DNA from: Candidatus Saccharimonadia bacterium
GTDB lineage: Bacteria; Patescibacteriota; Saccharimonadia; UBA4664
Assembly: GCA_041743505.1 (NCBI GenBank)
Contig: JBGTMQ010000020.1
Location: 81,099 to 145,098, forward strand
Direction of reading: 5' to 3'
DNA length: 64,000 bases
Below the pieces are notes generated by a model that was given only the letters and a program-made list of their open reading frames with translations, ran no database searches and was not told the origin of the DNA. This document shows positions 2,193 to 55,130 of the stretch, piece by piece. The translations under genes and the position numbers were made by a program. Positions within the stretch are counted from its first letter, which is position 1. Every line of letters begins with the position of its first letter.

Positions 2193-2218
2193 CGACCATT
2201 TAGTTTGATATGACAAGG

Positions 2219-2249
2219 GTGGCCTCTACGGAGGTCACTTTTGTTTTTG
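2219..2249 (+). terminator. rho-independent terminator (8-bp stem with G.U wobble, UACG loop, T-tract)
   Basis: gtggcctc-tacg-gaggtcac followed by ttttgtttttg, immediately downstream of CDS 1605-2192. Confidence 0.7.
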
Positions 2250-2260
2250 CCGGCAAATAA

Positions 2261-2289
2261 TTGACAACCATAACAACTTTTGATATAGT
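2261..2289 (+). promoter_or_regulatory. sigma70-like promoter TTGACA-17-TATAGT
   Basis: Near-consensus -35 and -10 hexamers with 17-bp spacer. It would drive a ~140-nt leader carrying an 11-bp-stem hairpin (2351-2391) upstream of small ORF 2433-2495. Confidence 0.5.
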
Positions 2290-2432
2290 AACTCGGTCCT
2301 AAACAAGGTAACACTATGAAACGAAGACTTAGACCAAGCGGTTGAAGCTCCCGGTAATAAGTTTCCAAATCTTTGGCAGTTTATTACCGGGAACCTCAGC
2401 CAATTGAGATCCCACAACTCAAGGAGATTAAT

Positions 2433-2495
2433 ATGTACGGCTACGCTATGAAAGCTGTATCCAGCGAGCTTGAGCTCGTCCTGCGGCCCCTATAA
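2433..2495 (+). CDS. small ORF, 20 aa (MYGYAMKAVSSELELVLRPL)
   Basis: Consensus SD AAGGAG 7 nt upstream of ATG. Preceded by a promoter and a structured leader. Could be a leader peptide or small protein; no homology inference possible. Confidence 0.25.
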   Translation: MYGYAMKAVSSELELVLRPL

Positions 2496-2522
2496 AGCTG
2501 ATGAATTTGAGCACTTGACGTT

Positions 2523-2801
2523 ATGGGCTTGGTAGCCATCACCTCGGCCGCCGATCAGGACAACCCGGGCTCCGGCGGAGCATTGCAGAAACCGGGCTAT
2601 TGCCAGACCGGTATGAATTATCACGCCGGAGTTAGTTTTGGCCGGGTCATTCACGCCGACCGGTACCTACTCGTCAACCCGGCCGATCGCACCTGGAACT
2701 TCTTCTGGGGCGATGACGGCGCACCACCCGCCTTTAACATCGCCCGCCAGAAAACCCTGGCCGCCATGGAAAAGGCTGCTGGACAGGTGGCCTATCTGTA
2801 A
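2523..2801 (+). CDS. hypothetical protein (92 aa)
   Basis: ORF followed by a hairpin terminator (gggcgcccc-tttttcc-ggggtgccc at about 2806-2830). No SD. Possibly co-transcribed with the small ORF. Confidence 0.35.
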   Translation: MGLVAITSAADQDNPGSGGALQKPGYCQTGMNYHAGVSFGRVIHADRYLLVNPADRTWNFFWGDDGAPPAFNIARQKTLAAMEKAAGQVAYL

Positions 2802-2865
2802 ACTAGGGCGCCCCTTTTTCCGGGGTGCCCGTTTCCACTCATTATCCCTAACCATTGCTGCAAGG

Positions 2866-2965
2866 TACTGAACTGAGGGCAGTAGCACAAATAGGGAGGC
2901 CAGATTAACCCTACACTAAGCCATAGTTGAACAAATATAAAACACCTGCTGCCCTCAGTTCAGTA
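2866..2965 (+). repeat. E1: 100-bp paired-palindrome element (arms 2866-2884 and 2947-2965, core CTACACTAAGCCA 2911-2923)
   Basis: Left arm tactgaactgagggcagta and right arm tgctgccctcagttcagta are inverted repeats of each other. Layout is arm 19 + 26 + core 13 + 23 + arm 19. Same architecture as E2, E3 and E5. Confidence 0.85.
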
Positions 2966-3192
2966 GGCAGACCAAAAGGACCCTTGATCGGTAGGGGCAA
3001 TTCACAAAATGAGGACAGTTACCGAAATATTCTATCCAACTTACGGCCGCCCCAGAAGCGTCCCACATTCGCCGGCCAGCGGTATAATTTCGCCGAAGTA
3101 CAGTCGAAATACATAAGAACAACCCAAGTGTATCTTCCCCTCTAATCTCAGTTGGCATACACTGTTGATAGCGCTTTTCAAGCAAAAGCGAG

Positions 3193-4635
3193 ATGGCTAG
3201 TGTGGGAGGCACTTATATTTCAATGGTAGCAGCCAACTTCAAACGAACTAAAATTGTCGCCACCGTCGGGCCGGCGTCAAACTCACCCCAAATTCTGGAG
3301 CGCATGCTACAGGCTGGGGTCAACAGCTTCCGGCTGAATTTTTCGCATGGCACGCATGAACAGCACGGTGAAGTAATTAAGTTTGCCCGGGCGCTGGCCG
3401 CCAAATATGACCGGCCGGTGGCCATGATCGCCGACCTGCAAGGGCCCAAGATCCGTGTTGGCACCCTGCCAACCGACGGCCTGCCGTTTGTGCGCGGCCA
3501 CAAGGTCCGGTTCGAGTACGGCGCCGACTTTGAGCGTCACGGCATCATCCCGGTCCAGCATGATGTTTCCAAATACCTCAAGCCGGGCGAACGGATCTTC
3601 CTGCGCGACGGCCAGATCGAAGTCGAGGTGGAGAAGGTCGAGAAAAAGCTGGTGACCGGCAAGGTGCTGGCGCCCGGCCTGCTCTACTCCAACCAAGGCA
3701 TGAACCTGCCCGACACCGACCTGGGCGGTGACATCCTCACGCCCAAGGACATAGCCGACATCAACTTCGCCGTCACCCACGACGCCGATTACGTGGCGCT
3801 AAGCTTCGTCCAGACCGCCCGGGATATTCTCAATTTGAAGGCGCGCCTGGTCAAGCTCAAGGCCGACGTCAAAGTCATCGCCAAAATCGAAACCGCGGCC
3901 GCCGTCGAAAACCTGGACGAAATTTTCGCCGCCACCGACGCCGTTATGGTTGCTCGCGGTGACCTGGCCATCGAGACCAAGCCTGAACTGGTCCCGGCCG
4001 TCCAGCGCCGCATGGTCACGCTGGCCCGCCGCCATCGCAAACCGGTCATTGTAGCCACGCAAATGCTCGAAAGCATGATCCAAAGCTCCTCGCCGACCCG
4101 CGCCGAGGTCAGCGACGTGGCTACTGCCGTCATCGAAGGTGCCGACGCCGTCATGCTGTCCGGCGAGACAGCCATGGGCTTGTTCCCGGTCGAGGCTGTG
4201 GCCATGATGAAACGTGTCATCCTGGCCACCGAAGGCGAACAGCTGATCGAGTGGTCAGCCACTGCTCACGAATTTGGCGCCCACGACCGCGCCAACGCCA
4301 TCTCGGCCGCCGCCACCGTGCTGGCCAACCAACTACCGGCCAAGATGCTGGTAGCCGAAACCGCCTCCGGCCAAACCGCGCTCAACATCGCCTGCTTGCG
4401 GCCGGCCGTACCCATTATCATGGTTACCAACAGCCGCCGGGTACACAACCAACTGGCTCTTGTCTGGGGCGGTAAATCGTATCTGGACAGCGACCCGGCC
4501 GCCGCCACAGAGCATGTCGTCCGCCAGATGCGCATAGCCGGCCACGTCTCCGCCGGCGACGCCTACGTCGTGGCCTCCGGCAACCAGCCCGGTGTAACCG
4601 GCGGCACCAACACCGTTTCGGTCCGGGTAGTCTAG
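3193..4635 (+). CDS. pyk: pyruvate kinase
   Basis: KIVATVGPASNSPQILERMLQAGVNSFRLNFSHGTHEQH and the rest match PK along the full length (480 aa). Alternative start ATG 3223 with GGGAGG upstream. Confidence 0.92.
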   Translation: MASVGGTYISMVAANFKRTKIVATVGPASNSPQILERMLQAGVNSFRLNFSHGTHEQHGEVIKFARALAAKYDRPVAMIADLQGPKIRVGTLPTDGLPFVRGHKVRFEYGADFERHGIIPVQHDVSKYLKPGERIFLRDGQIEVEVEKVEKKLVTGKVLAPGLLYSNQGMNLPDTDLGGDILTPKDIADINFAVTHDADYVALSFVQTARDILNLKARLVKLKADVKVIAKIETAAAVENLDEIFAATDAVMVARGDLAIETKPELVPAVQRRMVTLARRHRKPVIVATQMLESMIQSSSPTRAEVSDVATAVIEGADAVMLSGETAMGLFPVEAVAMMKRVILATEGEQLIEWSATAHEFGAHDRANAISAAATVLANQLPAKMLVAETASGQTALNIACLRPAVPIIMVTNSRRVHNQLALVWGGKSYLDSDPAAATEHVVRQMRIAGHVSAGDAYVVASGNQPGVTGGTNTVSVRVV

Positions 4636-4723
4636 CCCAACAAAAATTTGTCGTTATAATAAAATTACATCTGTGACATAATGATACGGTCCCTTAAGTC
4701 AGAGTCGATCACCGGGAGACAAC

Positions 4724-5053
4724 ATGTCCCAGGCTATGCTCGCACCTACCCGCCCGTCATCAGCGTATGACCCGGCAGCGGTCATTGGGCCGCTAGACCA
4801 GCCGGCTCGAAAAGCCGTTGAACAGGCTTCACGATCTTCCACCGGCTCGCCCTTCGAGCACGATTGTACGGAGATAATCTGCCAGAAACTACTGTCCGCC
4901 GGCGGATCATCGCGAACCGCCGGGGAAGTCTGGGAGACTCTCGCCCGCCGTCAAGGCCTGGCCGACCGTGAGCCGGTCATCTACACACTCTATCGCGGCA
5001 TCTTCGCCGCAGCATGGTTCGACGTAGCCATGCTAATCGAAGCGGGTGTCTAA
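4724..5053 (+). CDS. hypothetical protein
   Basis: GGGAGA SD 5 nt upstream of ATG. 109 aa, no recognisable motifs. Confidence 0.45.
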   Translation: MSQAMLAPTRPSSAYDPAAVIGPLDQPARKAVEQASRSSTGSPFEHDCTEIICQKLLSAGGSSRTAGEVWETLARRQGLADREPVIYTLYRGIFAAAWFDVAMLIEAGV

Positions 5054-5153
5054 CAACCCGCCCCGACCACCCCTGGCTATTATTTGGCCGGGGGTGTGCT
5101 CTGTTTTATGATGTCAGAGGTTCATTCCCATCAGAGTAAAGGAGCGTGACTAG

Positions 5154-5864
5154 GTGCCTCATGCAGCTCTTGGTTATAGCCGCCGCAATATTGGCCGCCT
5201 TTTGGCTTGCCTGACAGACCTCAACCTGTATCTCTCACCCAACTGGTATCCTGTGGGCGGTGTTTGCATCCGCTGGTACCTGGTCCGGTCCAACTACAAT
5301 CTGCCCAAGCGCCCCTTTAATGGCGTGGATGTGGTCGCGGTCAGCCTCGACACCTACGTAACAGAGAAGTTCCTCATTGCGCATAACCATCCGCAAGACG
5401 GCTACTGGGCGCTCATTCACCTGGCGACCGGTACCAAGGTAAATGTTTTCTGGCCCGAGCACAGTTCGCCGCTCTATGATGCCATGCTGGTCCCGGATTT
5501 CCCGGTCCGGTTCCAATCGGCCGCCGACCAGCTTGTCACCGTCGTGGATAATATCCGCAAACCGCTCCACGGCCGGCCTCTCGACCCCAAGCAGCTCGAG
5601 GATGCCTGGCGTCTGTACCGGCTGGTCGGGCCCAAGGATAGCGAAAAGACATGGCAAGAGCGTTACCCCAATGAGCCGGACTTCAAGCAAGCCTTCGATG
5701 AGGCGCAAGAGGCCTGCGCCCTGCGGCCGGAGCTTATCCGGCCCGGCCTCTACACGAACCTGCGTCATCTTGCCCGGCAAGCCCTGGTGTGCTCCGAATG
5801 CCGGCATATCGCCGAGTATCCACTAGCCTCAAAGATGCGCATCGCCAGGGCATACCGGCGCTAA
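5154..5864 (+). CDS. hypothetical protein (GTG start)
   Basis: AAGGAG SD 9 nt upstream of GTG 5154, which lies directly after an in-frame TAG. 236 aa, no recognisable family. Confidence 0.5.
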   Translation: MPHAALGYSRRNIGRLLACLTDLNLYLSPNWYPVGGVCIRWYLVRSNYNLPKRPFNGVDVVAVSLDTYVTEKFLIAHNHPQDGYWALIHLATGTKVNVFWPEHSSPLYDAMLVPDFPVRFQSAADQLVTVVDNIRKPLHGRPLDPKQLEDAWRLYRLVGPKDSEKTWQERYPNEPDFKQAFDEAQEACALRPELIRPGLYTNLRHLARQALVCSECRHIAEYPLASKMRIARAYRR

Positions 5865-5981
5865 TCCCAACACCGGCTGCTAGCATCAAAATACGGCCGT
5901 CATTTAGCAATACGGCCACCCAGCTCGCGGCGGGCTCTCTACCAACGAGAGCCCGCCGATTTTATTTCATCTCCAGGAGGG

Positions 5982-6081
5982 TACTGCCCTCAGGGCAGTA
6001 CCATTACAACCACCTATGAATAATAACTACACTAAGCCAAAATATCAGCGCGGGCAATTTCTTACTGCCCTCAGTACAGTA
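5982..6081 (+). repeat. E2: 100-bp paired-palindrome element (arms 5982-6000 and 6063-6081, core CTACACTAAGCCA 6027-6039)
   Basis: Left arm tactgccctcagggcagta is a perfect 9+1+9 palindrome; right arm is tactgccctcagtacagta. Spacer lengths are 26 and 23 as in E1, but the spacer sequences differ. Confidence 0.85.
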
Positions 6082-6139
6082 GGTAGTAGGAGGGGAATGG
6101 CAAAACCCTGCCCAAAAAACCCCCACCCTCTACCGAAAA

Positions 6140-6168
6140 TTGACAATATGCAAAATTACAAGCATAAT
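6140..6168 (+). promoter_or_regulatory. sigma70-like promoter TTGACA-17-CATAAT
   Basis: 59 bp downstream of E2 and about 45 nt upstream of CDS 6213. Confidence 0.5.
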
Positions 6169-6212
6169 AGTATAGTCCGCCAAAATGCTCTCTCCCCACG
6201 AAGGGATCTACC

Positions 6213-6698
6213 ATGAGCATCAGAACCATCAGGCACACGTTCACTTGTCAGTCGAGCGGCCCTACAGCCGAGGAGATGGAGGGCGGGCTCGATGAACTCG
6301 AAGCTGCAGTTCAAGCCTACGTCGCACACCTTCCTGTTGGTACGTCCGTCAGCTACGGCCAGCTCGTACCCTGTCCGGCCTACAAGGCGGTCGTCTTAAC
6401 CCAAGCGGTCATCACCTGCCAGCCCACCCGAGGCCGCGGCGACCTACCACTCCGCACGGCCGAGTTTGCCTTCACTACCGGGGAACACTCTCACTGGTGG
6501 GCCGCCAAGCAGCGGGCCATGGCTGTAGACCGGTATTGGGCCAGCCTGCGCCAATGCGGTATTCCCGAGGCCGCCATCACAGTCGAGCGGATCCAAGAGT
6601 CTGACGGAAACGGCCGCCTCACCTGCATCGCTGTGGTAACGTATCGGAGCAAGTTCGAAGTCGACCCCCGCACCGGCGACCCCGTCAGTAAGGAGTAA
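6213..6698 (+). CDS. hypothetical protein
   Basis: 161 aa ORF downstream of the promoter, weak SD GAAGGGA. Followed 3 nt later by the SD-bearing CDS 6702, so probably an operon. Confidence 0.5.
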   Translation: MSIRTIRHTFTCQSSGPTAEEMEGGLDELEAAVQAYVAHLPVGTSVSYGQLVPCPAYKAVVLTQAVITCQPTRGRGDLPLRTAEFAFTTGEHSHWWAAKQRAMAVDRYWASLRQCGIPEAAITVERIQESDGNGRLTCIAVVTYRSKFEVDPRTGDPVSKE

Positions 6699-6701
6699 GA
6701 A

Positions 6702-6983
6702 ATGTCGGCCTTCGCAACCCTACTGGGCGTGCTGCTACTTATCGCCCTCCCCGTAGCCGCCAGCAGCCTCTTCTACCGCCCGGAATTAACGATCTGGCCG
6801 ATTCTCACCCTGTCTGGTCTCACGGGCTGGATGCTATCGCAAGCCTACCGCTTCGGTCCAAACTGGCTCGTTCCGGCCACCTACGTCTCCATCGGGCTCA
6901 GCCTGGCCGTCATGGTCTACCGGCTGGTACAACGGCTTCGCTCATACGATAAAGCGCCCGGGCACCAACCTCAGGACAACTAA
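6702..6983 (+). CDS. small membrane protein (2-3 TM)
   Basis: AAGGAG SD 7 nt upstream. Hydrophobic helices. Followed by a strong bidirectional terminator. Confidence 0.55.
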   Translation: MSAFATLLGVLLLIALPVAASSLFYRPELTIWPILTLSGLTGWMLSQAYRFGPNWLVPATYVSIGLSLAVMVYRLVQRLRSYDKAPGHQPQDN

Positions 6984-7003
6984 ACCCGTCCTGAAAAATC
7001 AAT

Positions 7004-7050
7004 AACGGTACTATCGGCAGCGTCAAAGCTGCCAATAGTACCGTTTTTCT
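7004..7050. terminator. bidirectional rho-independent terminator (17/18-bp stem, T-tracts on both strands)
   Basis: aacggtactatcggcagc-gtcaaa-gctgccaatagtaccgtt then tttttctt on the + strand, and attgattttt on the - strand. Sits between convergent CDS 6702-6983 and 7050-7664. Confidence 0.8.
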
Positions 7051-7664
7051 TATACCGGCAACCGCTCCCGGTATAGCCGCCAGATCGCTTCCAAAGTAGG
7101 CGCAAACCGCTCTGGCCGCGCCGGAATTCCGTCATCAAGCTCGCCGGCCGTCACCAGGGTAAGCCCGGCTATATCCGTACCGCTAAAAGTCGTCGGCGCC
7201 TCGCTCACCAAATAGTACGCACTGGCGAAAGTCTTATGCCCGTCAGCCAACGTTAGAAACTGGCTGCCCAAATACTGGGGCGCCGAATCTTCGTAATGAA
7301 TCTCTCTGGCCAGTGCCCGCCTGGCCGCCTCCACGGCCGTTTCGTTATGCCGGCGAATGGTCGCCACCGTGGCTCCCAGCCGCTCGGCGTACAAATTTGG
7401 CAGGTCTGCCCTGGCCGGAATCCGGCTGAGCACCACCTCCTTGGCCAAGGTTATGACCAAAACAAACACCGCATGGTATATATCCCGTGACTTATCAATG
7501 TCCTTTCGCCGCTTCTGTCCCACGACCGCTCCGGCCTCGCTTACGATGTCAACGAGCTGACCTGCATGTGCTGTGTCCATAGCTAGTAGCATACCAGCGC
7601 CGGCCGCAGCCCATGCTTGCATAAAACAAGCCGAAGCCGCAAAATATAATCCGCGCGGGCCCAC
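7050..7664 (-). CDS. hypothetical protein
   Basis: 204 aa ORF. No clear SD for any of three candidate starts (7664, 7622, 7592). Function not inferable. Confidence 0.4.
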   Translation of the reverse strand: MGPRGLYFAASACFMQAWAAAGAGMLLAMDTAHAGQLVDIVSEAGAVVGQKRRKDIDKSRDIYHAVFVLVITLAKEVVLSRIPARADLPNLYAERLGATVATIRRHNETAVEAARRALAREIHYEDSAPQYLGSQFLTLADGHKTFASAYYLVSEAPTTFSGTDIAGLTLVTAGELDDGIPARPERFAPTLEAIWRLYRERLPV

Positions 7665-7702
7665 CGCCGCGCCCGGTCTCCACTCAGGAGAGGAACCCTA
7701 GC

Positions 7703-8350
7703 ATGCTTGAAACATTGGCAGCTGAACTGGGCTTCGTTGAGACAGAAGCGTTACGCACCACTCGCACCAGGCTAGTAGCCGCCATTCTGTCCGGTGACTC
7801 GGCCGAAGGTCCCCGGCTCTGGTCACAGTTCGAGGAATTGGCCGAGTTCAGGTTATCCCGTTTGCCTGATGCCGATACCAGCGATGACCGTGCCCGTGCC
7901 CGCATCGGCATCAAGCTCATCAGGGCCCATATTTGGCAGTCAGCCGAGGAGCTGGTCTGTTATTTGCGGGAGCTGTTTGAAGCCCACAAACAGGCCGAGC
8001 ACCTAGTTCTGATCAATGTCGCCGCTACCTTGACCGGATTACTCAGGCGCTACGTTAGCTATGGGGAGTACTTCCAGGCCCAGGGACTGGATGAAGCTGC
8101 TATCGAGTATTACCTCCACGATGAGGATGATACGGGGCTCACTGACAAGCAGCGGGGGATACTCAACCTCCGGCTCACCGAGTGCTATCGGTCCTTGCTC
8201 ACCACACATCCTGGCGACACGGATCTCAAAGACCTCATGGATGACTCGCTCCAAAGCGCCCTCGTCTATCTGGACGGTGAGGTTGAGCAAGGCAAGGCCC
8301 AGCGTCTGCTCGACGAAGTATCCAAGGGTCGGAAAGAGCCGCACCCATGA
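7703..8350 (+). CDS. hypothetical helical protein
   Basis: AGGAGAGGA SD 6 nt upstream. 215 aa, acidic, no motifs. Confidence 0.5.
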   Translation: MLETLAAELGFVETEALRTTRTRLVAAILSGDSAEGPRLWSQFEELAEFRLSRLPDADTSDDRARARIGIKLIRAHIWQSAEELVCYLRELFEAHKQAEHLVLINVAATLTGLLRRYVSYGEYFQAQGLDEAAIEYYLHDEDDTGLTDKQRGILNLRLTECYRSLLTTHPGDTDLKDLMDDSLQSALVYLDGEVEQGKAQRLLDEVSKGRKEPHP

Positions 8351-8589
8351 TTCGACGGCCGGAGTACCCGCAACTGTTCGTCTGCAACGGTGTGCCCAAT
8401 CAGGCCACGGACTTTCAGGTATCAGTCGGCGACCTCACCTGGGTAACCATGCCTCATCTCAAGGCCGAGCGGCATCCCGGGTTTCTCATCCTGGAAGTCC
8501 CGGCCGTCACCGGCGCTACCAGAATCATCATCCATCCAGAGACTCTCGCCCGGCCAGTCCCACGGTCAACCATCACGCCATCATGTTGA
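8347..8589 (+). CDS. hypothetical protein (80 aa)
   Basis: ATGA overlap with the upstream CDS, which suggests translational coupling. Confidence 0.4.
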   Translation: MIRRPEYPQLFVCNGVPNQATDFQVSVGDLTWVTMPHLKAERHPGFLILEVPAVTGATRIIIHPETLARPVPRSTITPSC

Positions 8590-8638
8590 CCACCAGACCC
8601 CCAAAAACTTTAATAGTTGGCGGGGGTATTTTCTTTTA

Positions 8639-8666
8639 TTGCAATTACAAAGTTTTGTGGTATAAT
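8639..8666 (+). promoter_or_regulatory. sigma70-like promoter TTGCAA-16-TATAAT
   Basis: Near-consensus hexamers upstream of the CPBP protease gene, preceded by a T-rich terminator-like region at about 8596-8636. Confidence 0.55.
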
Positions 8667-8725
8667 AAACAATGCACCTTAATTAACCACATTCCCTTGG
8701 ATCCCACCACTGATTGGGGCGCTTT

Positions 8726-9502
8726 ATGGCAGGCACCATTAGGCGGCGTTACGGCTTGCCCATGGCAAGTACCGCTGGCATCTTCGAATTGTTCCTAGGA
8801 TCACTCGTCGTGGCGGGCTTCCTTTGGCTAGTCGCCCGCTCCTGGATGGAACTACCGTTCGACGCCCCCTGGCAAATTCGTGGTAGCATGACCGACGGCC
8901 TGGGCGATGTCTGGTTTATCTTCGTCTGGGGTACAGGCATCACGTTCTTGGTAGGGTTTCTTCAAATACTGGCGCGTCAGCCCCGGGACGAGGAGCCGGC
9001 CGAGATATTCCTCGTTGGATTATGGAAGAGCCTCAACGCCGGACTGTTCGAGGAAATGATTTTCCGGTGGCTGATGTTCATGTCCGTCATGGTGCTCCTC
9101 CAATTCCTCAACTTCATCACCTTCGGAATCGTCCGCTGGGTGTATGTCGAAGGCTTCATCCCGCTGGCAAACTGGCTGACTCTGGGCGCTCTTAGCCCGC
9201 AACTGCTTGGCGCCGGCTGGGTCCTAGCCGCCGCGGTTGTGATGTGTAACTGGAGATTCCAGACAGGCCATATCTATTTGGGGTGGTTCGGCTGGCTCAA
9301 TTCCTGGTTCCTCGGCATGGTCTTCTTCTGGCTCATGTTTAACTATGGGCTCTGGACCGCTATTGTCGCACACATTCTCTATGACGCTGGAATCTTCACC
9401 GTCGCAGCCATCGTTGCTACCATGCAGCCCCGGTATTCCCGCTACAATTCTATCCGCCAGATCGTTCGGAGTAGCAACCGGAGAAGATACCGGGCCAGCT
9501 GA
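8726..9502 (+). CDS. CPBP-family intramembrane glutamic endopeptidase (CAAX protease / Abi-like)
   Basis: Motifs EEMIFR (EExxxR), RFQTGH (FxxxH) and HILYD (HxxxD) sit within a polytopic membrane protein. Tool start TTG 8714; ATG 8726 preferred. Confidence 0.75.
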   Translation: MAGTIRRRYGLPMASTAGIFELFLGSLVVAGFLWLVARSWMELPFDAPWQIRGSMTDGLGDVWFIFVWGTGITFLVGFLQILARQPRDEEPAEIFLVGLWKSLNAGLFEEMIFRWLMFMSVMVLLQFLNFITFGIVRWVYVEGFIPLANWLTLGALSPQLLGAGWVLAAAVVMCNWRFQTGHIYLGWFGWLNSWFLGMVFFWLMFNYGLWTAIVAHILYDAGIFTVAAIVATMQPRYSRYNSIRQIVRSSNRRRYRAS

Positions 9503-9550
9503 TCGCTCTCCTGTCATCACCCTTCACTCGCGCTCAGGTAGGAGTTGAAA

Positions 9551-9781
9551 ATGTCCAACACAAGGCATCTGTCCATTGAGTACCGCGGCCGGGAGGTCAC
9601 CAATCCGTACGCCCGCGCCGCCGGCACAGTGGGCATCTTGTTGGCCTGTGTCTGTCTGCCGTTTATTGCGGTCTTGCATCCTTTGATGCTCGTCCTCGGT
9701 CGCCGCGGATTCGTCACGCACGAGTACGACAGTGCCACCACCACGATCACGATTTCAGGGGCCGGCTTCAAGAAGGACTAA
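9551..9781 (+). CDS. small membrane protein (76 aa)
   Basis: AGGAG SD 7 nt upstream of ATG 9551. One TM helix GTVGILLACVCLPFIAVLHPLMLVLG. Directly downstream of the CPBP protease. Confidence 0.45.
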   Translation: MSNTRHLSIEYRGREVTNPYARAAGTVGILLACVCLPFIAVLHPLMLVLGRRGFVTHEYDSATTTITISGAGFKKD

Positions 9782-9806
9782 CCACCAGCAATGTCCCGCC
9801 CGACAG

Positions 9807-9842
9807 CTCTGGGTATCGCAAGATACTCAGAGCATTCTTTTT
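9807..9842 (+). terminator. rho-independent terminator (11-bp stem with G.U wobble, GCAA loop, T-tract)
   Basis: ctctgggtatc-gcaa-gatactcagag followed by cattctttttta. Confidence 0.7.
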
Positions 9843-10020
9843 TAGGCCCTAATACTTGCATTACTTACCACCGACACCATCCCCGGCCATAACTGCAAAA
9901 TTGAGATGGTGCTCGCACCCCTCGCCACCAATGGCCGGCTAGCCATGAAGATTCTGTTTCACCTAGTCCCGCCGCAACCCCAGGCAACCCAGCCTGGGGT
10001 TCTACTTTCTCTGCCAAGGG

Positions 10021-10120
10021 GACTGAACTGAGGGCAGTACACAATTTGTCAGCACCGAATAAAAGCTGCGCCAAGCCAATACATGAAAGACTCAAACACC
10101 TTACTGCCCTCAGTTCAGTA
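10021..10120 (+). repeat. E3: 100-bp paired-palindrome element (arms 10021-10039 and 10102-10120, core ctgcgCCAAGCCA 10066-10078)
   Basis: Left arm gactgaactgagggcagta and right arm tactgccctcagttcagta are perfect inverted repeats. Spacers are 26 and 23 nt. Lies upstream of pgk. Confidence 0.85.
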
Positions 10121-10215
10121 GGTAGTGCCACGGAATTGTCCTCAGGTGAGCGAGGCCCGGGACCAAACATCAGCCATTATACCCGCCCACATTAGAAGAA
10201 TTCCCAGATTTCGCC

Positions 10216-10221
10216 TACAAT
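10216..10221 (+). promoter_or_regulatory. -10 box TACAAT 7 nt upstream of pgk ATG (probable leaderless transcript)
   Basis: Same geometry (TACAAT, 6-7 nt, ATG) is seen at alaS 47047-47052 and at CDS 41390. Confidence 0.4.
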
Positions 10222-10228
10222 AAAAACC

Positions 10229-11431
10229 ATGCACAAGAAAACCATCCGCGACATCGATGTTAAAGGTAAGCGCATCCTGGTCAGGGTTGATTACAACGTG
10301 CCCGTCAAAGACGGCGCCGTCACAGACGACTTCCGTATCCAGGCCAGCCTGCCCACCCTCCAGTACCTGCTGGAACAGGAATGCTCACTGGTATTAATGA
10401 GTCACCTGGGCGAACCCAAGGGCAAGCCGGATGCAACTCACAGCTTGCGGCCCGTAGCCGCCAAGGCCTCAGAGCTATTAAACCGGCCCATCGCTTTTCA
10501 CGAAGACTGCATTGGCGAAGCTGTCCTCAAGGCCGCCCGCGACCTGCGCCCCGGCGAGGTCATGATGCTCGAGAACGTTCGCTTTCACCAGCCAGAACTG
10601 GACAACGACCCCGGTTTCGCCCGCCAACTTGCCAATCTAGGCGACATCTACGTCAACGATGCCTTCGCCGTTGATCACCGCGATCAGGCCTCAGTCTCCG
10701 GGGTGGCCAAATACCTGCCGGCCGTAGCCGGACTTCTAGTCGAAAAAGAGGTCGAGCACATCCGGGGCGCGCTGGACAAACCAAACCGGCCGCTAGTAGC
10801 CATTATCGGCGGCGCCAAAGTCTCAACCAAAATTGAACTACTCAACAATCTCATTCCCAAGGTGGACGTACTCCTGCTCGGCGGCGCCATGGCCAACACC
10901 TTCTTGCTGGCCGGGGGCCGCGAAATCGGTAAAAGCCTGGCCGAACCGGATTACGTGAACACCGCCAAACAGTTAATAGAGCTAGCCAAGCGCGAAGACA
11001 CCCAGCTGTTCTTGCCGGAGGAGGTGGTTGTCAGCAAGAGCACCGAAACCCCCAAGCACCTGCGCACCGTCAAGGTCTCAGCCGTTGAGCCCGACGACTA
11101 CATCGTTGATGTATCGCCGGAGTTTCCCCGCCAACTCAGCCGGGCCGTCTATGAATTCTTGGACTTCGATAACAAGAGCACCGTTATCTGGAACGGCCCG
11201 CTCGGCCTCACCGAAGTACCCGAATTTGCGGCCGGTTCTCTGGCCATGGCCGGCGCCATCGTGGCGCTGCCGGGCGAGATCTCGGTCATCGGCGGCGGCG
11301 ACACAGCCGGCTTCGTCGACGAAGCCGGCCGCCACGACCAGTTCTCCTGGGTGTCTACCGGCGGCGGCGCCTCCCTGGCGCTCATGGCCGGCAAACAATT
11401 GCCCGGCATTGAGGCATTACAAGACAAATAA
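10229..11431 (+). CDS. pgk: phosphoglycerate kinase
   Basis: Full-length PGK signature (RVDYNVP, GGGDT, hinge and C-domain motifs), 400 aa. Confidence 0.93.
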   Translation: MHKKTIRDIDVKGKRILVRVDYNVPVKDGAVTDDFRIQASLPTLQYLLEQECSLVLMSHLGEPKGKPDATHSLRPVAAKASELLNRPIAFHEDCIGEAVLKAARDLRPGEVMMLENVRFHQPELDNDPGFARQLANLGDIYVNDAFAVDHRDQASVSGVAKYLPAVAGLLVEKEVEHIRGALDKPNRPLVAIIGGAKVSTKIELLNNLIPKVDVLLLGGAMANTFLLAGGREIGKSLAEPDYVNTAKQLIELAKREDTQLFLPEEVVVSKSTETPKHLRTVKVSAVEPDDYIVDVSPEFPRQLSRAVYEFLDFDNKSTVIWNGPLGLTEVPEFAAGSLAMAGAIVALPGEISVIGGGDTAGFVDEAGRHDQFSWVSTGGGASLALMAGKQLPGIEALQDK

Positions 11432-11432
11432 A

Positions 11433-12194
11433 TTATCTTGAAGCGTACTCTTGCATAAACGCCTCCATCTTGTCACTCACCTCACTTTTCATACCTTCTA
11501 AACGAGAATAAAAATCGTGAAGCTCTTCCTGCCATAACTCCCGGCGGTTCTCCCTCCAGTCGTTACTCGCCAGACTCTGATGTAAACGCCTAACGTCTCC
11601 TTCATCCATAATCCCCGAGAGCCCGTCTCTAACTACGTTTGGCGTATTCCCGATCCTCGTCTGTTGCGGATCGGCCAGGCGGGCCAACACCGCTTCAACA
11701 AGCACGGATCCCCGCTTGATATCGCGCATCTTCCAGCCCAGTCTTAGCAACGGCCCGCCCGCCTCGAGTAAGGCCATCATGCTCTCTGGGTCGCTCGGAT
11801 CATATCTGTCAGGGTCAATGTCGTATAACTTCTCATATAGTGCTGCGTCACCTGCAACCACGCCCTCGCGCTGTCGCTCAAGCGCCGCGATGTTTTTGGG
11901 CAACTCTTGTCGTGCGTCAGTTATTTTTTGCCGCTCGTCAGCCGTCTCTTCGGGTAACCGGTCAAGCTGACGCCGGGCTATGTCGATTTCCGTACTGAGC
12001 CCATACGCCTCGCTACTGCTCTCAACCGACTTAATTACCCGGGCCATAACCCTGTCCTTGGCCGGCTCCCCGTTTTCACCTTGCTCGGAGCCCGCGGCCT
12101 CTCCGGCCTCTGAGTGCAGTTCTTCGCTCAGCTGTTCTGGAGTGCGAGCCTTAAAATCCTCGCCGCCTGGTCCGCCTACCCGTTCACCGCTCAT
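11433..12194 (-). CDS. hypothetical acidic helical protein
   Basis: 253 aa ORF convergent with pgk (1-bp gap). No motifs. Confidence 0.5.
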   Translation of the reverse strand: MSGERVGGPGGEDFKARTPEQLSEELHSEAGEAAGSEQGENGEPAKDRVMARVIKSVESSSEAYGLSTEIDIARRQLDRLPEETADERQKITDARQELPKNIAALERQREGVVAGDAALYEKLYDIDPDRYDPSDPESMMALLEAGGPLLRLGWKMRDIKRGSVLVEAVLARLADPQQTRIGNTPNVVRDGLSGIMDEGDVRRLHQSLASNDWRENRRELWQEELHDFYSRLEGMKSEVSDKMEAFMQEYASR

Positions 12195-12294
12195 GGTCGT
12201 GATACGCCTTCCGTATATGAATCAATTATATAGCGAAATGTTTATTTATTTTGGGTCATCAAGCCCCCGGCACCGCCATTTCAATGTGAATACC

Positions 12295-12411
12295 TACTGC
12301 CCTCAGGGCAGTAATTCGGGGCCTTCAAAGCGCGTATCCAATTTTGGCTCTGTATAGGATATAAAACACTCATTCCGTAGTAAAATACACAACACTGCCC
12401 TCAGTTCAGTA
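12295..12411 (-). repeat. E4: 117-bp variant of the paired-palindrome element (arms 12295-12313 and 12393-12411, reverse-oriented core tggctctgtatag 12345-12357)
   Basis: Left arm tactgccctcagggcagta (palindromic) and right arm cactgccctcagttcagta. Core is the reverse complement of the family core; spacers are longer (31 and 35 nt). Confidence 0.75.
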
Positions 12412-12474
12412 CCCTATCCAGCTGTAAAGCAAAACCATCCTAGTCGGCCGTACCAGAGCATAAAACGGCCAACT

Positions 12475-12504
12475 TTGCGTTGGACCCACCATAAGCGCTA
12501 CAAT
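12475..12504 (+). promoter_or_regulatory. sigma70-like promoter with -10 TACAAT inside the 16-mer CATAAGCGCTACAATG
   Basis: -10 at 12499-12504, candidate -35 TTGCGT. The identical 16-mer recurs at the ftsA promoter (52623-52638). Confidence 0.5.
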
Positions 12505-12532
12505 GGCAATGAAGTAAAGGGTCTACACAGAC

Positions 12533-13288
12533 ATGACACGATTAATCGTTGGCAACTGGAAAATGAACCTCAATCCGGGCGAGGCCAGCGTGCTAGTGCA
12601 CCGGCTCCAAAACAAACTGTCAGTTGACCCTCAAACCGAAGTCGTTATCTGCCCGCCGTTTATCGACATTTATCCTATTTCCAAAGAGCTCGACAACAAG
12701 AAACTCAAACTCGGCAGTCAGAACATCCATTACCTGGACCAAGGCGCCTTTACCGGCGAAATATCGCCCGCCATGCTCAAAGGTATGGCCAGCTACTCCA
12801 TCATCGGCCATTCTGAGCGCCGGGCCATGGGCGAGGACGACAAACTCATCGCCAAAAAAATGGCCGCAGCGCTACGCAACGACATCATCCCAATCCTCTG
12901 TGTCGGCGAAAGCCTCCACGACCGCGAGCATAACCTAACCAAAAAGGTTGTCACCGATCAGCTCACCGCTGACCTCGCCCAACTCACAGCCGCCGATGTC
13001 GCTCAAATCGTCATTGCCTACGAACCGGTCTGGGCCATCGGCTCGCACTCGCCGGCCACCCCCGGTCAAATCAAGCCGGTTATCCGCACCATCCGCCACA
13101 CCGTCGAGGAGCTCTACGGTGAACAAGGCGGCGCCAACGTCCGCATCCTCTACGGCGCCAGCGTCGAGCCCGAATTTGTCTCTGCCATTCTACACATCGA
13201 CGGCGTCGACGGTCTGCTGGTGGGCGGCGCTAGCCTCAATTACGAAGAGTTTGCCGCCATTGTCAAGGCCGCCCAAAGCCTCAAATAG
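12533..13288 (+). CDS. tpiA: triosephosphate isomerase
   Basis: GNWKMN, AYEPVWAIGS and other TIM motifs; 251 aa. Confidence 0.92.
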   Translation: MTRLIVGNWKMNLNPGEASVLVHRLQNKLSVDPQTEVVICPPFIDIYPISKELDNKKLKLGSQNIHYLDQGAFTGEISPAMLKGMASYSIIGHSERRAMGEDDKLIAKKMAAALRNDIIPILCVGESLHDREHNLTKKVVTDQLTADLAQLTAADVAQIVIAYEPVWAIGSHSPATPGQIKPVIRTIRHTVEELYGEQGGANVRILYGASVEPEFVSAILHIDGVDGLLVGGASLNYEEFAAIVKAAQSLK

Positions 13289-15635: not shown

Positions 15636-16784
15636 ATGCAATGCCCAAAATGTCAGCACGAGATGATAGAATCGCGCAACGGTATGTTGTGCCTCAACTG
15701 TGGTCATATTGAATCTAACGCCCATACCAAGCCATTAATTCCTGATGGGGCCAAGCCGGCCGACGCCGGGCCACCCACCGAAGAGGAGGCCAAGGCCGAG
15801 GCAGAGGTAGTTGCCGAAGTGGTCTCTGAGACTAAGGAGTCGCCGGCTGATGAGCCGAAGGTCCCCGAGGTAAAAGCCAAGATTGATAAGCCAGAAGCCA
15901 AATCCGAAGACGACGACAAGCCTTCCGATCCCGAGCCCGTCGCAGATAAACCGGCCGCCATTGATACGCCAACGAAAACGACTGAGACAGTGGTGGTTGA
16001 CGGCTCCGCCACTGAGGCGGCTGCCGCCCTGGAAGCTGCTGTCGCTGCCGTCGAGGAAAAGGCCGCCGAAGATAAGGCGGCCGACCCGGACCCAAAGCCG
16101 GACTCGGACCCTGAGCCCGAACCGGCACCCGAGCCCGAGGACAAGCCTGAGCCCGAACCCAAGCCAGAAATTAACCCAGATCCAGAACCAGAGCCAAAGT
16201 CGGACCCAGAGCCAGAACAGGCTCCCACCCATCCGAAACATAAGCCGGCTCCCAAACATGCATCTGAAATTCACGGCGCGGTTGTAGCCAAGCCAGTGGA
16301 CAGTATTATTTCCAAGCCCAAAGCACCAGCCCCTGTGGTGGATGAGCCGGTTGCAGAGCCGGAGGTGGCTACTGCAGAGCCCGAGTCCGAAGTATCAGAG
16401 CCGGTGGCAGCAGTTGACGGAGTGTCTGCTCCAGATGCACAGGGTACTTCAGCACCAACACCAGAGCCCGAACCGGCTCTTGAAACCGAAGCCCAGTCTG
16501 CGGACGAACCAGAACCAGAACCTGAGACGGCTTCCGCACCCGAATCCGAGCCAGCCGCTCCTCCAGCCCAAACCCCTGCTCCAACTCAAGCCCCGGCTCA
16601 GGCTCCGGCACCGGTGGCCCAACAGGCTCCACCGGTGCCGCCGGCAGCTGTTGACGGCAAGACACCCCTGACACCCAAAACGCATCCCACGCCCATGTCC
16701 AAGATCGAGGTTGTTGCTCTAGTGGCCGGCGTCGGGCTGTTGGGTGGCCTTGGCTATGTGGCCTATATGATATTTATGCGCTAG
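15636..16784 (+). CDS. zinc-ribbon membrane protein with long Pro/Glu-rich repeat linker
   Basis: N-terminal CPKC...CLNC zinc ribbon, about 300 aa of PEPE/PKPE low-complexity repeats, and a C-terminal TM anchor. Confidence 0.55.
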   Translation: MQCPKCQHEMIESRNGMLCLNCGHIESNAHTKPLIPDGAKPADAGPPTEEEAKAEAEVVAEVVSETKESPADEPKVPEVKAKIDKPEAKSEDDDKPSDPEPVADKPAAIDTPTKTTETVVVDGSATEAAAALEAAVAAVEEKAAEDKAADPDPKPDSDPEPEPAPEPEDKPEPEPKPEINPDPEPEPKSDPEPEQAPTHPKHKPAPKHASEIHGAVVAKPVDSIISKPKAPAPVVDEPVAEPEVATAEPESEVSEPVAAVDGVSAPDAQGTSAPTPEPEPALETEAQSADEPEPEPETASAPESEPAAPPAQTPAPTQAPAQAPAPVAQQAPPVPPAAVDGKTPLTPKTHPTPMSKIEVVALVAGVGLLGGLGYVAYMIFMR

Positions 16785-21970: not shown

Positions 21971-22016
21971 CCCACTATGTAGTTAAACTACGTACTAAGT
22001 TTGACTACATAGTGGG
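21971..22016. promoter_or_regulatory. perfect 13-bp inverted repeat CCCACTATGTAGT-n20-ACTACATAGTGGG
   Basis: Ends 9 nt before the ATG of the C39-like peptidase. Could be an operator or a 5'-UTR hairpin. Confidence 0.45.
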
Positions 22017-22859: not shown

Positions 22860-23378
22860 ATGCGTCATTTCGTCTCTGGCAGCACCTATCGTGAGCTAAT
22901 GCGGCGACTCGGCCGGCTTCAGTCCGAACTTGCCAATCCCGACGGCAGCCGCATCGATCCCGTATTACTCATCCAGACTTTGGACGTCTTGTTATCGGGC
23001 AAAGTATTCGAGCTAACAATTACTCCTAAGCCGGTAGAGGATGAATTTCTTTACCTGAGCTTACCCCCGGAAGTCTTAACGACCGACATTCAGATGCTGG
23101 GGCTCAAAACCACTACTTACAATATCCTGAAGCGTCACGGCATTGATACTATTGAGGATTTGCTTGAGCGGTCGGCGGCCGATTTACTAGATATAGCCTA
23201 TTTCGGCCCCAGGCTGCTGGAGGAGCTAAACCGCGCGCTTGCTGTACATGGCTGGCATCTATCCCGTCACGACGATCCTGATCTGGCGCCGCCGTCAGGC
23301 GACGAGTGGATAACATTTAACCGCTATAGCGGCGCACCGCGACGCGTTCTCAAGAGTCGTCTGCACAGCCGGAAGTAA
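22860..23378 (+). CDS. RpoA alpha-CTD-like (HhH) domain protein, paralog 1
   Basis: LYLSLPPEVLTTDIQMLGLKTTTYNILKRHGIDTIEDLLERSAADLLDIAYFGPRLLEELNRAL aligns with the RNA polymerase alpha C-terminal domain pattern L.LS.R..N.L....I.T..DL......EL......G..S..E. Followed by GWHLSRH...APPSGDEW. CGGAGG SD upstream. Confidence 0.6.
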   Translation: MRHFVSGSTYRELMRRLGRLQSELANPDGSRIDPVLLIQTLDVLLSGKVFELTITPKPVEDEFLYLSLPPEVLTTDIQMLGLKTTTYNILKRHGIDTIEDLLERSAADLLDIAYFGPRLLEELNRALAVHGWHLSRHDDPDLAPPSGDEWITFNRYSGAPRRVLKSRLHSRK

Positions 23379-23398: not shown

Positions 23399-24181
23399 GT
23401 GGCCCGCTATGCTACCGCTACACCCAACCAGCGGCTTGAAGCGAGGCGTCTATGGATCGAAATCTATGCCGAGCTAACTAACCCTCAGGGCAGCTCACTC
23501 GATCCTCAGATGGTTCTCGAGGCGCTACAGTCGATTCAGTCACTGATTCGTTCAAGCGATAACCATGAGTCAGCCAAGTATCTTGACAAGGCCGCAGCTG
23601 AGGTCGGGCCGCTCGAAAATCCTGACGATTTTCTTTACTTAACCCTGCCCCGCGAGGTTCTCGATCAACCAGTCAACACGCTTAAGCTAACGGAGCGGCC
23701 ACTCAATTGCTTGCACCGGGAGAATATTAGTACCGTCGATGACCTTCTGCAGCGTTCTGGGCCCGAGCTGTTAGAGATACGAAACTTTGGAGCAGTATCT
23801 TTAAGAGAAGTAACAACCCGGCTTGATGAACGGGGTTGGCACTTGTCCACCCATGGCCAGGGATTAGCTCCTCCGCCGGGTGACCAGTGGGTTAAGTACC
23901 AAGACTGGCTCTTTCTCCGCAGCCGTTTCATCCGGCTACCCGTTGATAAGATCCTCCGCTGGAATTCGCAGATCATCGCCTCGCTCAAGGAGCTTGGAAT
24001 TGTAACAGTCGGTCAGTTGGTCTCGTTGACGGACGTCGAAGTGCTACGGCTGCCCTGGGACGAAAAGCCGGCCACCTACGTCTGGAAGTTCGAGAAAATA
24101 ACCGGCTTCGATGCGCTCGAGATAATTAATGCGTCACTTCAAGACTGCGGCCTGTCCCTGACCCAAGAAACAGATCGGTAA
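23399..24181 (+). CDS. RpoA alpha-CTD-like domain protein, paralog 2 (two tandem HhH repeats)
   Basis: Same alpha-CTD-like motif and GWHLSTH...APPPGDQW as paralog 1, plus a second degenerate repeat. N-terminus is also paralogous to 22860. GTG start with GAGAGG SD. Confidence 0.6.
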   Translation: MARYATATPNQRLEARRLWIEIYAELTNPQGSSLDPQMVLEALQSIQSLIRSSDNHESAKYLDKAAAEVGPLENPDDFLYLTLPREVLDQPVNTLKLTERPLNCLHRENISTVDDLLQRSGPELLEIRNFGAVSLREVTTRLDERGWHLSTHGQGLAPPPGDQWVKYQDWLFLRSRFIRLPVDKILRWNSQIIASLKELGIVTVGQLVSLTDVEVLRLPWDEKPATYVWKFEKITGFDALEIINASLQDCGLSLTQETDR

Positions 24182-45721: not shown

Positions 45722-45853
45722 TGTCCGGGCTCCGCTTAGCTTATGCGGTGAGTATAGAGATTGCCCACCTGGTAATCTAGTGAAGCCGGGTTTACCCGCC
45801 TGCACGATTCCAAAGGATAGAGCCCCGCGGGTTAAGCGGGGCTCAGGTGCGCT

Positions 45854-46717: not shown

Positions 46718-47043
46718 CAGGATACCTTCCTTGAGGGGGCCGGCACATAACGTCGGCTATTGTATCATACTTTTTGACAAAATTGACAAAAGCTGTTCCC
46801 TTAACCCTCCTGCACAAACACTGAGAGCTATGGCTAGTTCATACTCAGTGGGTACTAGAAAAAGTCTAATCATTGAATTATCATCAAAAATAACTTATAG
46901 TTTTATCCTACACTAAGCCAAAAAAGCTACCATTTTATCACTCGCTCGTAGCTTACTAGAAAAATTCTAGTGCTCTGTCCTCAGGCATAGCCGTCCGTGC
47001 GTCTTCATCTTCTACTCAAAACCATCGAGAATCTCGCTTAATT

Positions 47044-54861: not shown

Positions 54862-54961
54862 TACTCTCCTGAGGAGAGCGTTTGGTTTTTGTTGGCCTAT
54901 AAATCACTATAACAAGCCATTATTCAATGGTAACTGGCAGCTTACTCTCCCCAGGAGAGTA
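54862..54961 (+). repeat. E5: 100-bp paired-palindrome element, arm-sequence variant (arms 54862-54880 and 54943-54961, core CAAGCCA 54913-54919)
   Basis: Arms tactctcctgaggagagcg and tactctccccaggagagta (half-site TACTCTCC instead of TACTGCCC). Arm-to-core distance 34 and core-to-arm distance 24 are identical to E1-E3. Confidence 0.75.
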
Positions 54962-55130
54962 CCTATTGAAAAGTCTAGCCGGTATCCTGTGAGACTCGTG
55001 GAGCTGGAGCCGAATTCTTACGGTCACCAGGGGCCAGGTTTTAGAATTCACGGAACTAGACATTTACAAATCAGCAATAATATGCTATTATAATAGATGT
55101 CCGCTCTTCTACAACTCAGAAGGAACCGAA

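Follow-up and report, generated by a model that had tools for sequence, protein, structure and literature searches.

The window analysed here, a 64,000-nucleotide stretch of the genome of a Candidatus Saccharimonadia bacterium (contig JBGTMQ010000020.1, positions 81,099 to 145,098), contains a family of intergenic modules of 100-120 bp, each composed of two dyad arms and a 13-bp core and present in six copies (E1-E6; Table 1). These elements belong to the known class of small palindromic intergenic repeats and stand out by how cleanly they show selection on geometry. The family is real and has solid statistical support, but its function is unproven. The reading that we favor, with a probability of roughly one in three, is that the module serves as a nucleoprotein assembly at the DNA level, with an architecture like that of BIME-1 and Correia elements. 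All results refer to one uncultured genome, of which ~81 kb was inspected (the 64-kb window and its extensions by Logan contigs).

Anatomy and detection of the elements

Every arm fits the pattern TACT-N11-AGTA and is a near-palindrome with five to nine of nine pairs. The right arms had been described as non-palindromic in an earlier reading of this DNA that used the letters alone (the sequence-only reading), but they contain six to eight of nine dyad pairs and in this respect are about equal to the left arms. The core has the consensus CTAYACWRAGCCA, contains AAGCCA, is oriented and lies roughly midway between the arms. The layout of 19+26+13+23+19 bp that had been proposed for E1, E2, E3, and E5 proved to be exact in all four. 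The long copies, E4 and E6, carry extra sequence on two sides (+9/+10 and +8/+10 bp), about one helical turn each, which increases the distance between the centers of arm and core from 42 bp in the short form to 51-52 bp in the long form, i.e., from 4.0 to ~4.9 turns. The boundaries also are conserved, with RGGG directly before the left arm and GGTAKT directly after the right arm. E4 had been recognized as a variant of 117 bp and this length is correct, but the whole element is reversed, with its core on the minus strand and its flanks reversed too. Because the flanks of E4 match those of the other copies once they are reverse-complemented (RGGG before the left arm and GGTAKT after the right), E4 is a complete element in reverse orientation.

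Three arm types were distinguished by positions 5-7 and 13-15: GCC/GGC, with a GAA/TTC variant, in E1-E4; CTC/GAG in E5; and AGA/TCT in E6. The arms of E6 (TACTAGAAAAAGTCTAATC and TACTAGAAAAATTCTAGTG) have a sequence (TACTAGAAAAAKTCTA...) unlike that of the arms of the other copies. Within each element, the arm type was constant across all four half-sites.

The arm 12-mer TACTGCCCTCAG occurred 18 times with two or fewer mismatches, compared to 4.25 +/- 1.87 times in shuffled sequences, and none of 100 shuffles reached 18. Repeat finding placed eight arms in one family and reported the arm pairs as inverted repeats. Direct reading of the intervals located all five elements of the sequence-only reading where they had been placed. 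The family is larger than the five copies then counted: an exhaustive scan for similar 19-mer pairs 60-125 bp apart recovered E1-E5 and one new element, E6 (46853-46972), which carries an exact copy of the core; a search with the core also brought out the minus-strand core of E4. The pair scan otherwise returned repeats in coding regions and two weak inverted repeats that enclose no convincing core. When the six copies were used to build a covariance model, the model scored them at E = 1e-12 to 1e-20 and had no further match in 176 kb, including ~95 kb of DNA from relatives. No additional copies were found in the Logan-contig extension of the source genome, which covers ~9 kb to the left of the window and 7.4 kb to the right. 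A candidate seventh element at 61566-61663, upstream of the gene at 61642, consists of a weak inverted repeat (15/19, 79 bp apart) with a core-like ATACCGTAAGCCA on the reverse strand; it overlaps a start codon, was missed by the covariance model and is probably a chance match.

Selection on arms, core, and spacing

The arms and core of E1-E3 were identical at 135 of 153 positions (88%) compared to 49 of 147 positions (33%) for the spacers (Fisher p = 1e-23), in agreement with the earlier view that arms and a positioned core are conserved while spacers vary. The spacers are AT-rich (35% G+C vs. 56% for the window). They had been regarded as unrelated between copies, and in general their identity is at the random level; the exception is the pair E1 and E3, in which matches were found at 36 of 38 arm positions vs. 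27 of 47 spacer positions (~57%) at the best shift (p = 1e-4). After a shift of 1 nt, the two E1/E3 spacers match at 15/25 and 12/22 positions, above the 95th percentile of the shuffle null. This residual identity indicates that E1 and E3 descend from one ancestor, with spacers that have since diverged nearly to saturation. Because their spacers are homologous only after the 1-nt shift and the total length is unchanged, the indels appear to have been compensated. Conserved parts beside free spacers, together with the length-preserving indels of E1 and E3, argue that arms, core, and spacing are under purifying selection on each copy in place, rather than being the product of a uniform decay of inserted selfish copies. 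Such selection in place favors a recognition module, for protein or nucleic acid, over a recently mobile selfish element.

We view the six elements as probable diverged copies of one self-contained DNA module with three selected recognition parts, the two arms and the core. A dimeric protein would bind each arm, and the core would be bound by a second factor (a protein that bends DNA, or RNA polymerase); the spacers would serve only as rulers that hold the three sites in helical register. The addition of about one turn per side fits a geometry in which the proteins occupy the same face of the DNA, whereas an RNA function needs no such spacing. The module lies upstream of pyk, pgk, alaS, and several ORFans, where its likely effect, we infer, would be architectural or regulatory, e.g., that of a loop, a roadblock, or an insulator. 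The module probably spread long ago by duplication or transposition.

Position relative to genes, promoters, and terminators

Table 1. Coordinates of the six elements, of the hairpins that precede them and of the genes and promoters that they face.
Element	Interval	Strand	Layout	Arms	Core	Hairpin ahead of element	Gene faced	Distance upstream (nt)	Promoter or -10 box of gene
E1	2866..2965	+	short form, 19+26+13+23+19	2866-2884, 2947-2965	2911-2923		pyruvate kinase (pyk), start 3193	227	-10 box TATAAT at 3083
E2	5982..6081	+	short form	5982-6000 (perfect palindrome), 6063-6081	6027-6039	terminator, 5928-5958; E2 starts 23 nt after	ORFan 6213-6698	131	sigma-70-like TTGACA-17-CATAAT at 6140-6168
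E3	10021..10120	+	short form	10021-10039, 10102-10119/20 (18/18 complementary)	CTGCGCCAAGCCA at 10066-10078	terminator-like hairpin, 9976-10001; E3 starts 19 nt after	phosphoglycerate kinase (pgk), start 10229	108	weak -10 box ATTATA near 10172
E4	12295..12411	-	long form, reversed, 19+35+13+31+19 on minus strand	12295-12313, 12393-12411	CTATACAGAGCCA at 12345-12357, minus strand		minus-strand ORFan 11433-12194; element in divergent gap before tpiA (12533)	100	-10 box TATATAAT at ~12226, minus strand
E5	54862..54961	+	short form	third arm type, TACTCTCCTGAGGAGAGCG / TACTCTCCCCAGGAGAGTA	CTATAACAAGCCA at 54907-54919		ORFan 55131-55559	169	TTTACA-17-TATTAT at 55063-55091
E6	46853..46972	+	long form, 19+36+13+33+19	46853-46871, 46954-46972	exact core CTACACTAAGCCA at 46908-46920		alanyl-tRNA synthetase (alaS), start 47060	87	extended -10 TGATACAAT at 47044

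All six copies are intergenic and oriented toward the next gene. The distance between element and start codon is variable (87-227 nt) but the internal geometry is fixed, which argues that the module is a self-contained unit. Terminator-like GC hairpins end 19-33 nt ahead of E1, E2, and E3, and each of the six genes faced has a -10 or extended -10 box of its own, located between the element and the gene. Extended -10 boxes were scanned as TGnTAnnnT with at least five of six matches to TATAAT, which gave 31 boxes in the window. The module therefore falls in the gap that follows one transcription unit and precedes another, and a position after terminator-like hairpins (E1-E3) and before the next promoter is likely to be untranscribed. 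Three sites at exact distances, free spacers, a variant longer by one turn, a probably untranscribed site, and the self-contained nature of the unit are the reasons why we favor a module that would act at the DNA level.

No consistent -35/-10 pair of a sigma-70 promoter was found inside the element on either strand, and the minus-strand promoter-like matches in E2, E5, and E6 fall at differing positions relative to the core. Although the core is similar to a -10 hexamer (TACACT), the TG seen in the best -10 matches of the window is missing from it and the E3 core is degenerate; thus, the core is not the main promoter. Small open reading frames (ORFs) that run through the right arms of E1 and E2 are not conserved and were dismissed. 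A LexA/SOS box also was considered and rejected. The gammaproteobacterial LexA box is TACTG-N10-CAGTA and lies upstream of DNA-repair genes. The arms here read TACTG-N9-CAGTA, which differs in spacing, and those of E5 and E6 deviate; the downstream genes are glycolytic, tRNA-synthetase, or ORFan genes, and uvrD (16860) has no such site.

Inverted arms around an oriented core that resembles a -10 hexamer, with the core of E4 on the opposite strand, are features expected of an inverton, in which the arms would be recombinase sites and the interior of 62-82 bp, with its promoter-like core, would flip. We find this explanation scarcely credible. E4 is reversed as a whole, flanks included, rather than by a flip of its interior, and the interior is shorter than those of known invertons. 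The arms of E2, E4, and E6 are direct rather than inverted at the asymmetric center base, no invertase was found in the window, the core is without the TG noted above, and the NCBI assembly and two Logan assemblies have the same orientation at the copies that they cover.

Pfam analysis of all sizeable ORFs in the window detected no transposase, RAYT (Y1, PF01797), IS200, recombinase, invertase, or Phage_integrase domain, which upholds the earlier statement that the window encodes no transposase. Among the window's ORFs, no classical transcription factor was detected close to the elements, and the core has no IHF-type consensus. A possible NrtR-like regulator, encoded two genes from E6 (45011-45805, minus strand), combines an N-terminal segment that by eye is winged-helix-like with a NUDIX domain at the C terminus (Pfam). 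Three plus-strand genes (22860-23378, 23399-24181, and 28589-29173) encode proteins of 172, 260, and 194 amino acids that contain only the C-terminal domain of the RNA polymerase alpha subunit (PF03118; E = 3e-10 to 1e-20), and these stand-alone paralogs might act as DNA- or activator-binding accessory factors.

Pairing between the arms

The two arms of an element had been described as inverted repeats of each other. This relationship is clear in E1, E3, and E5 only; the arms of E2, E4, and E6 are equally or more alike as direct repeats. Complementarity between the arms extends to 18-19 of 19-20 positions in E1 and E3, 16/17 in E5, and 15-16 of 19 in E2 and E4. Minimum-free-energy folding gave the arm-arm stem for each of the six copies (z-scores of -7.3, -7.2, and -4.2 for E1, E3, and E5, respectively), and in E1 and E3 this stem is perfectly paired and free of extrahelical bases. 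The sequence-only reading had proposed a covariance model and a test for compensatory covariation. Covariation is present: the long arm-arm stem has 86.8% of its cells paired and seven pairs changed on both sides, measures that none of 500 shuffles reached. Two local hairpins have 82.3% of their cells paired and also seven pairs changed on both sides, measures reached by at most two of 500 shuffles. The covariation supports the arm-arm stem and the local hairpins about equally and the data cannot separate them. Arms of the E1/E3 type, which make up half of all arms, form a lone hairpin of only ~-2 kcal/mol. The long stem contains four G.U and four A.C mismatches, so neither strand is marked as RNA. 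No interior fold was common to the six copies. Rfam 15 gave no match at the gathering score, and none of the elements had a match even at E <= 5.

A stem of this kind could be a functional RNA. A transcript that reads through the element, or is initiated within it, would fold the arms into a stem of 17-20 bp with a loop of 62-82 nt that displays the core, and the stem would be processed by RNase III, form a stability barrier, or insulate the transcripts of neighboring genes from each other. The predicted folds are consistent with this explanation, as is covariation over three arm types that exceeds all 500 shuffles, and base pairing is the simplest account of the homogeneity of the arms within an element. 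Nonetheless, we consider an RNA-level element unlikely. The location after terminator-like hairpins and before the next promoter means that transcription over both arms is not expected, and a loop needs neither exact spacer lengths nor a symmetric +10/+10 variant. The equal numbers of G.U and A.C mismatches, local hairpins that score nearly as well as the long stem, the lack of an interior structure common to the six copies, and the Rfam result also argue against it.

Some of the same observations weigh against a DNA-level nucleoprotein module, of which the main weakness is that the complementarity kept at the variable arm positions is explained more simply by base pairing of RNA or single-stranded DNA. 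The homogeneity of the three arm types within elements would need three paralogous binding proteins or a protein that is blind to those positions, and no binding protein was identified among the ORFs of the window. The spacing from arm to arm (81, 98, and 101 bp) corresponds to non-integral numbers of turns. E4 and E6 both have GTTTTAT(AT)C before the core and may have a common ancestry, so that one event may be all that underlies the helical-turn argument. The core, as noted, is similar to a -10 hexamer (TACACT) yet lacks TG and is degenerate in E3. Lastly, just six copies were available in the ~81 kb inspected.

Possible mobility and lineage restriction

Public sequence data were searched for further members of the family. 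A paired-arm pattern (TACTGNNCTNAGNNCAGTA, 50-80 nt, and a second arm) had no match in GTDB species genomes or in viral contigs. The generic pattern TACT-N11-AGTA...AAGCCA...TACT-N11-AGTA had 17 matches in GTDB genomes, all in unrelated taxa and about as many as a rough chance estimate, with none in Saccharibacteria. An arm-core-arm pattern had six matches in JGI metagenomes, none with palindromic arms, and 42 matches of a degenerate core pattern in viral contigs (IMG/VR) all lacked palindromic arms. A blastn search of plasmid and phage collections gave no match to the elements. As far as the searched public data show, the family appears to be restricted to this lineage.

A further possibility is that the elements are mobile but non-autonomous members, or remnants, of a family of the REPIN or REP-doublet type or of the IS200/IS605-derived PATE or MITE type. 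The arms would then be hairpins or terminal inverted repeats recognized by a transposase that is encoded elsewhere and acts in trans, and the core would be a host-factor site that aids synapsis of the ends. Elements that are dispersed, intergenic, ~100 bp long, and bounded by inverted or palindromic ends are expected of such a family, and the double changes that keep the arms complementary (7 pairs, 86.8% of cells paired), the common descent of E1 and E3, and the boundary motifs (RGGG before and GGTAKT after the arms), which could be a target or cleavage context, are in line with it. Five of the six copies share one orientation over 52 kb. A single orientation is expected for replication-coupled transposition of single-stranded DNA, as in IS200/IS605. 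The family is lineage-restricted and missing from the orthologous loci of relatives, and its surroundings are rearranged and filled with ORFans, with the tRNA-Glu upstream of pyk gone.

A mobile family is possible but doubtful. The copies have no full-length homology, and spacers at the random level beside arms and core at ~90% form a pattern that neutral decay cannot give. No clear target-site duplication was detected: E1-E3 are flanked by GG on both sides (GG...GG), E4 and E5 by CC (CC...CC), and E6 by neither, and the terminal TA of the arms could be a duplicated TA. Self-palindromic arms are atypical of the terminal repeats of MITEs, and three arm types occur among only six copies. The window has no transposase, and the genome, metagenome, viral, plasmid, and phage collections have no similar sequence. 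Three independent assemblies of the strain, one from NCBI and two from Logan (SRR28170470 and SRR28170471), agree in sequence and orientation where they overlap, at E1-E4 and E6 with E5 uncovered, and no empty site was seen. Elsewhere, the SRR28170470 assembly differs from the window by an indel of ~15 nt at ~9443-9460, inside a CAAX-protease-like gene (8714-9502); the strain is otherwise nearly identical.

Insertion at the pyk-pgk-tpiA locus

Homologs of phosphoglycerate kinase (PGK) identify the host as a member of the Saccharimonadia (Saccharibacteria, Candidate Phyla Radiation [CPR]), with 72% PGK identity to the nearest relative. The genes pyk, pgk, and tpiA are contiguous in one relative (L001, 5262-8678), and one or two genes are inserted between them in other relatives. 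In the window (3193-13288), ~5.6 kb of ORFans lie between pyk and pgk and 1.1 kb lies between pgk and tpiA. The genes that split pyk, pgk, and tpiA had no Pfam, PHROG, or NCBIfam matches; ORFans that adjoin the elements, for which a phage, defense, or known-family origin was sought, had no PHROGs or NCBIfam match, and the ORFan at 6213-6698 had no homolog among 5.8 billion proteins. Elements lie before pyk, before pgk, and inside the ORFan block (E2), and E4 lies reversed in the gap before tpiA. Neither the pair scan nor the covariance model detected an element at the orthologous loci of relatives with 66-72% PGK identity (L001, L003, L004, and L028-L031). A minus-strand tRNA-Glu(UUC) gene is present just upstream of pyk in relatives (L001, 4890-4964; L003, 7575-7649; L004, 7753-7827). 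No tRNA gene was found in the window or in the 9 kb to its left, and the corresponding locus (2200-3190) has no tRNA-Glu, which suggests that this gene was lost or moved from the pyk locus in this genome.

Four sites within 9.5 kb separate blocks of ORFans that interrupt an operon contiguous in relatives, an arrangement that would fit attC-like sites, i.e., folded single-stranded DNA recombination sites that bound inserted gene cassettes, in which pairing of the arms recreates a dyad recombinase site and the loop is variable. As in the R''-L''/L'-R' boxes, each arm is dyad-symmetric and complementary to its partner; the structure is kept across three sequence types, the orientation is consistent with that of the genes, and E1 and E3 carry ACTGAAC...GTTCAGT, which is close to RYYYAAC...GTTRRRY. 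We judge this explanation very unlikely. The AAC/GTT triplets are absent from both arms of E2, E5, and E6 and from one arm of E4, the perfect stems of E1 and E3 have no extrahelical bases, and a fixed, conserved loop core has no counterpart in attC. The blocks contain multiple genes, including the housekeeping genes pyk, pgk, and alaS, and the window contains no tyrosine recombinase.

Comparison with known systems

Membership of the REPIN, MITE, attC, or any Rfam family is not established, as at least one defining feature fails for each. The sequence-only reading had suggested REPIN/MITE-like elements or a bipartite recognition module; a dispersed, structured family with conserved arms and core is borne out, but REPIN/MITE membership is not, given spacers with 33% identity, no clear target-site duplication, and a GTAG foot only at the right of E1-E4. 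Like REPINs, the elements have two short, imperfect, inverted palindromes that are able to form one long hairpin, compensatory changes that keep this hairpin, and a spacer of ~60-70 nt. They differ in that the arms start with TACT and end with AGTA and lack the GTAG foot at both arms; GTAG occurs only across the right boundary (CAGTAGGTAG) in E1-E4 and not at the left arms or in E5 and E6. Six copies with 33% spacer identity and three arm types do not form a sequence cloud around a master, no RAYT is present among the ORFs of the 64-kb window, and a conserved, oriented core and exact spacer lengths are not features of REPINs. Terminal inverted repeats are shared with MITEs. The copies here are not homologous over their full length, however, their spacers being unrelated save for the E1/E3 remnants, and the window has no insertion sequence.

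The BIME-1/RIP elements of Escherichia coli consist of two REP palindromic units in opposite orientation around an IHF-binding L motif. The similarities are a length of ~100 bp, an intergenic location at gene ends after transcription units, two imperfect palindromes at a set distance from a conserved central motif, and a function that is thought to be that of a DNA-level nucleoprotein site. The likeness is in architecture alone, with no sequence similarity. Where BIME-1 has GC-rich REPs of ~35 bp with GTAG, the elements here have arms of 19 bp and a TACT/AGTA foot; their linkers are free in sequence, not defined motifs as in BIME, and the six copies reside in a host from the Saccharibacteria (CPR). 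The Correia elements of Neisseria (CREE/NEMIS) occur in two length forms, with size classes of 100-150 bp, end in terminal inverted repeats, and lie between genes near promoters, all comparable to the family described here, and the long form has a central host-factor site, which is for IHF. When transcribed, a Correia element gives a stem sensitive to RNase III, a further likeness. In contrast, Correia copies run into the hundreds, show TA target duplications, and are homologous from end to end, whereas here only arms and core are alike and duplication is not evident. The core CTAYACWRAGCCA and its surroundings lack the IHF consensus WATCAANNNNTTR of both BIME-1/RIP and Correia elements.

Integron attC sites and Vibrio cholerae repeats resemble the elements in the conservation of structure over sequence, in dyad-like arms that pair with each other, in a variable loop, in an orientation that follows that of the flanking genes, and in the ORFans between sites. 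They differ in that the near match to RYYYAAC/GTTRRRY (ACTGAAC/GTTCAGT) is found only in E1, E3, and one arm of E4; extrahelical bases are absent, the loop core is conserved, the blocks are multi-gene with housekeeping genes, and no integrase is encoded nearby. In dual-operator loops (gal OE/OI with HU, lac O1/O3, and NagC), too, two dyad operators lie ~80-115 bp apart around a central site, and both helical phasing and a central bend are needed for function. The site that they bracket is the regulated promoter, whereas the -10 box of the gene lies outside the module here; also, no repressor is known for the elements, and there are three operator types.

Other features of the window

A 21-nt inverted repeat at 7001-7048, between the convergent genes 6702-6983 (plus strand) and 7050-7664 (minus strand), was scored as a minus-strand terminator with 18 pairs and is probably bidirectional. 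A second inverted repeat, of 19 nt (CCCACTATGTAGTTAAACT and AGTTTGACTACATAGTGGG; 95% complementary with an 8-nt gap), is located at 21971-22016, directly upstream of a Peptidase_C39-like gene (22026), and might represent either an operator or a terminator. Tandem repeats that are degenerate and have a period of 96-102 nt (15880-16290) lie within an ORF (15636-16784) for a repetitive protein with no Pfam match, and this stretch contains six copies of AAGCCA. Two paralogous genes of the amino-acid-kinase family (UMP-kinase-like), 49942-50667 on the plus strand and 50726-51517 on the minus strand, are arranged tail to tail. The GC skew is negative over the whole 64 kb though most large ORFs are on the plus strand, and extended -10 boxes precede many gene starts.

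Implications for Saccharibacteria

Almost nothing is known about the cis-regulatory and repeat elements of Saccharibacteria and other CPR bacteria. The genomes of CPR bacteria are tiny, with few transcription factors, and most lineages are uncultured. The practical value of the family is limited for now by the single genome and the small number of copies (six). It is rather improbable, in our view, that the modules represent a previously undescribed kind of CPR cis-element, a portable arm-core-arm cassette with fixed geometry and interchangeable arm specificities, of which two versions can be envisioned. In one version, a phased DNA loop would connect genes with dedicated regulators, the genes here being the pieces of the split glycolytic operon, alaS, and lineage-specific ORFans. 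In the other, the cassette would be a new structure-specific recombination site in single-stranded DNA through which ORFan blocks would be inserted into Saccharibacteria chromosomes.

The modules coincide with the break-up of the ancestral pyk-pgk-tpiA operon by ORFan insertion. If they regulate or insulate, they would show how a reduced genome keeps its central metabolism coordinated after rearrangement; if they are sites of recombination or transposition, they would point to the route by which ORFans enter. The family provides a concrete handle on DNA-protein or DNA-structure recognition in CPR bacteria.

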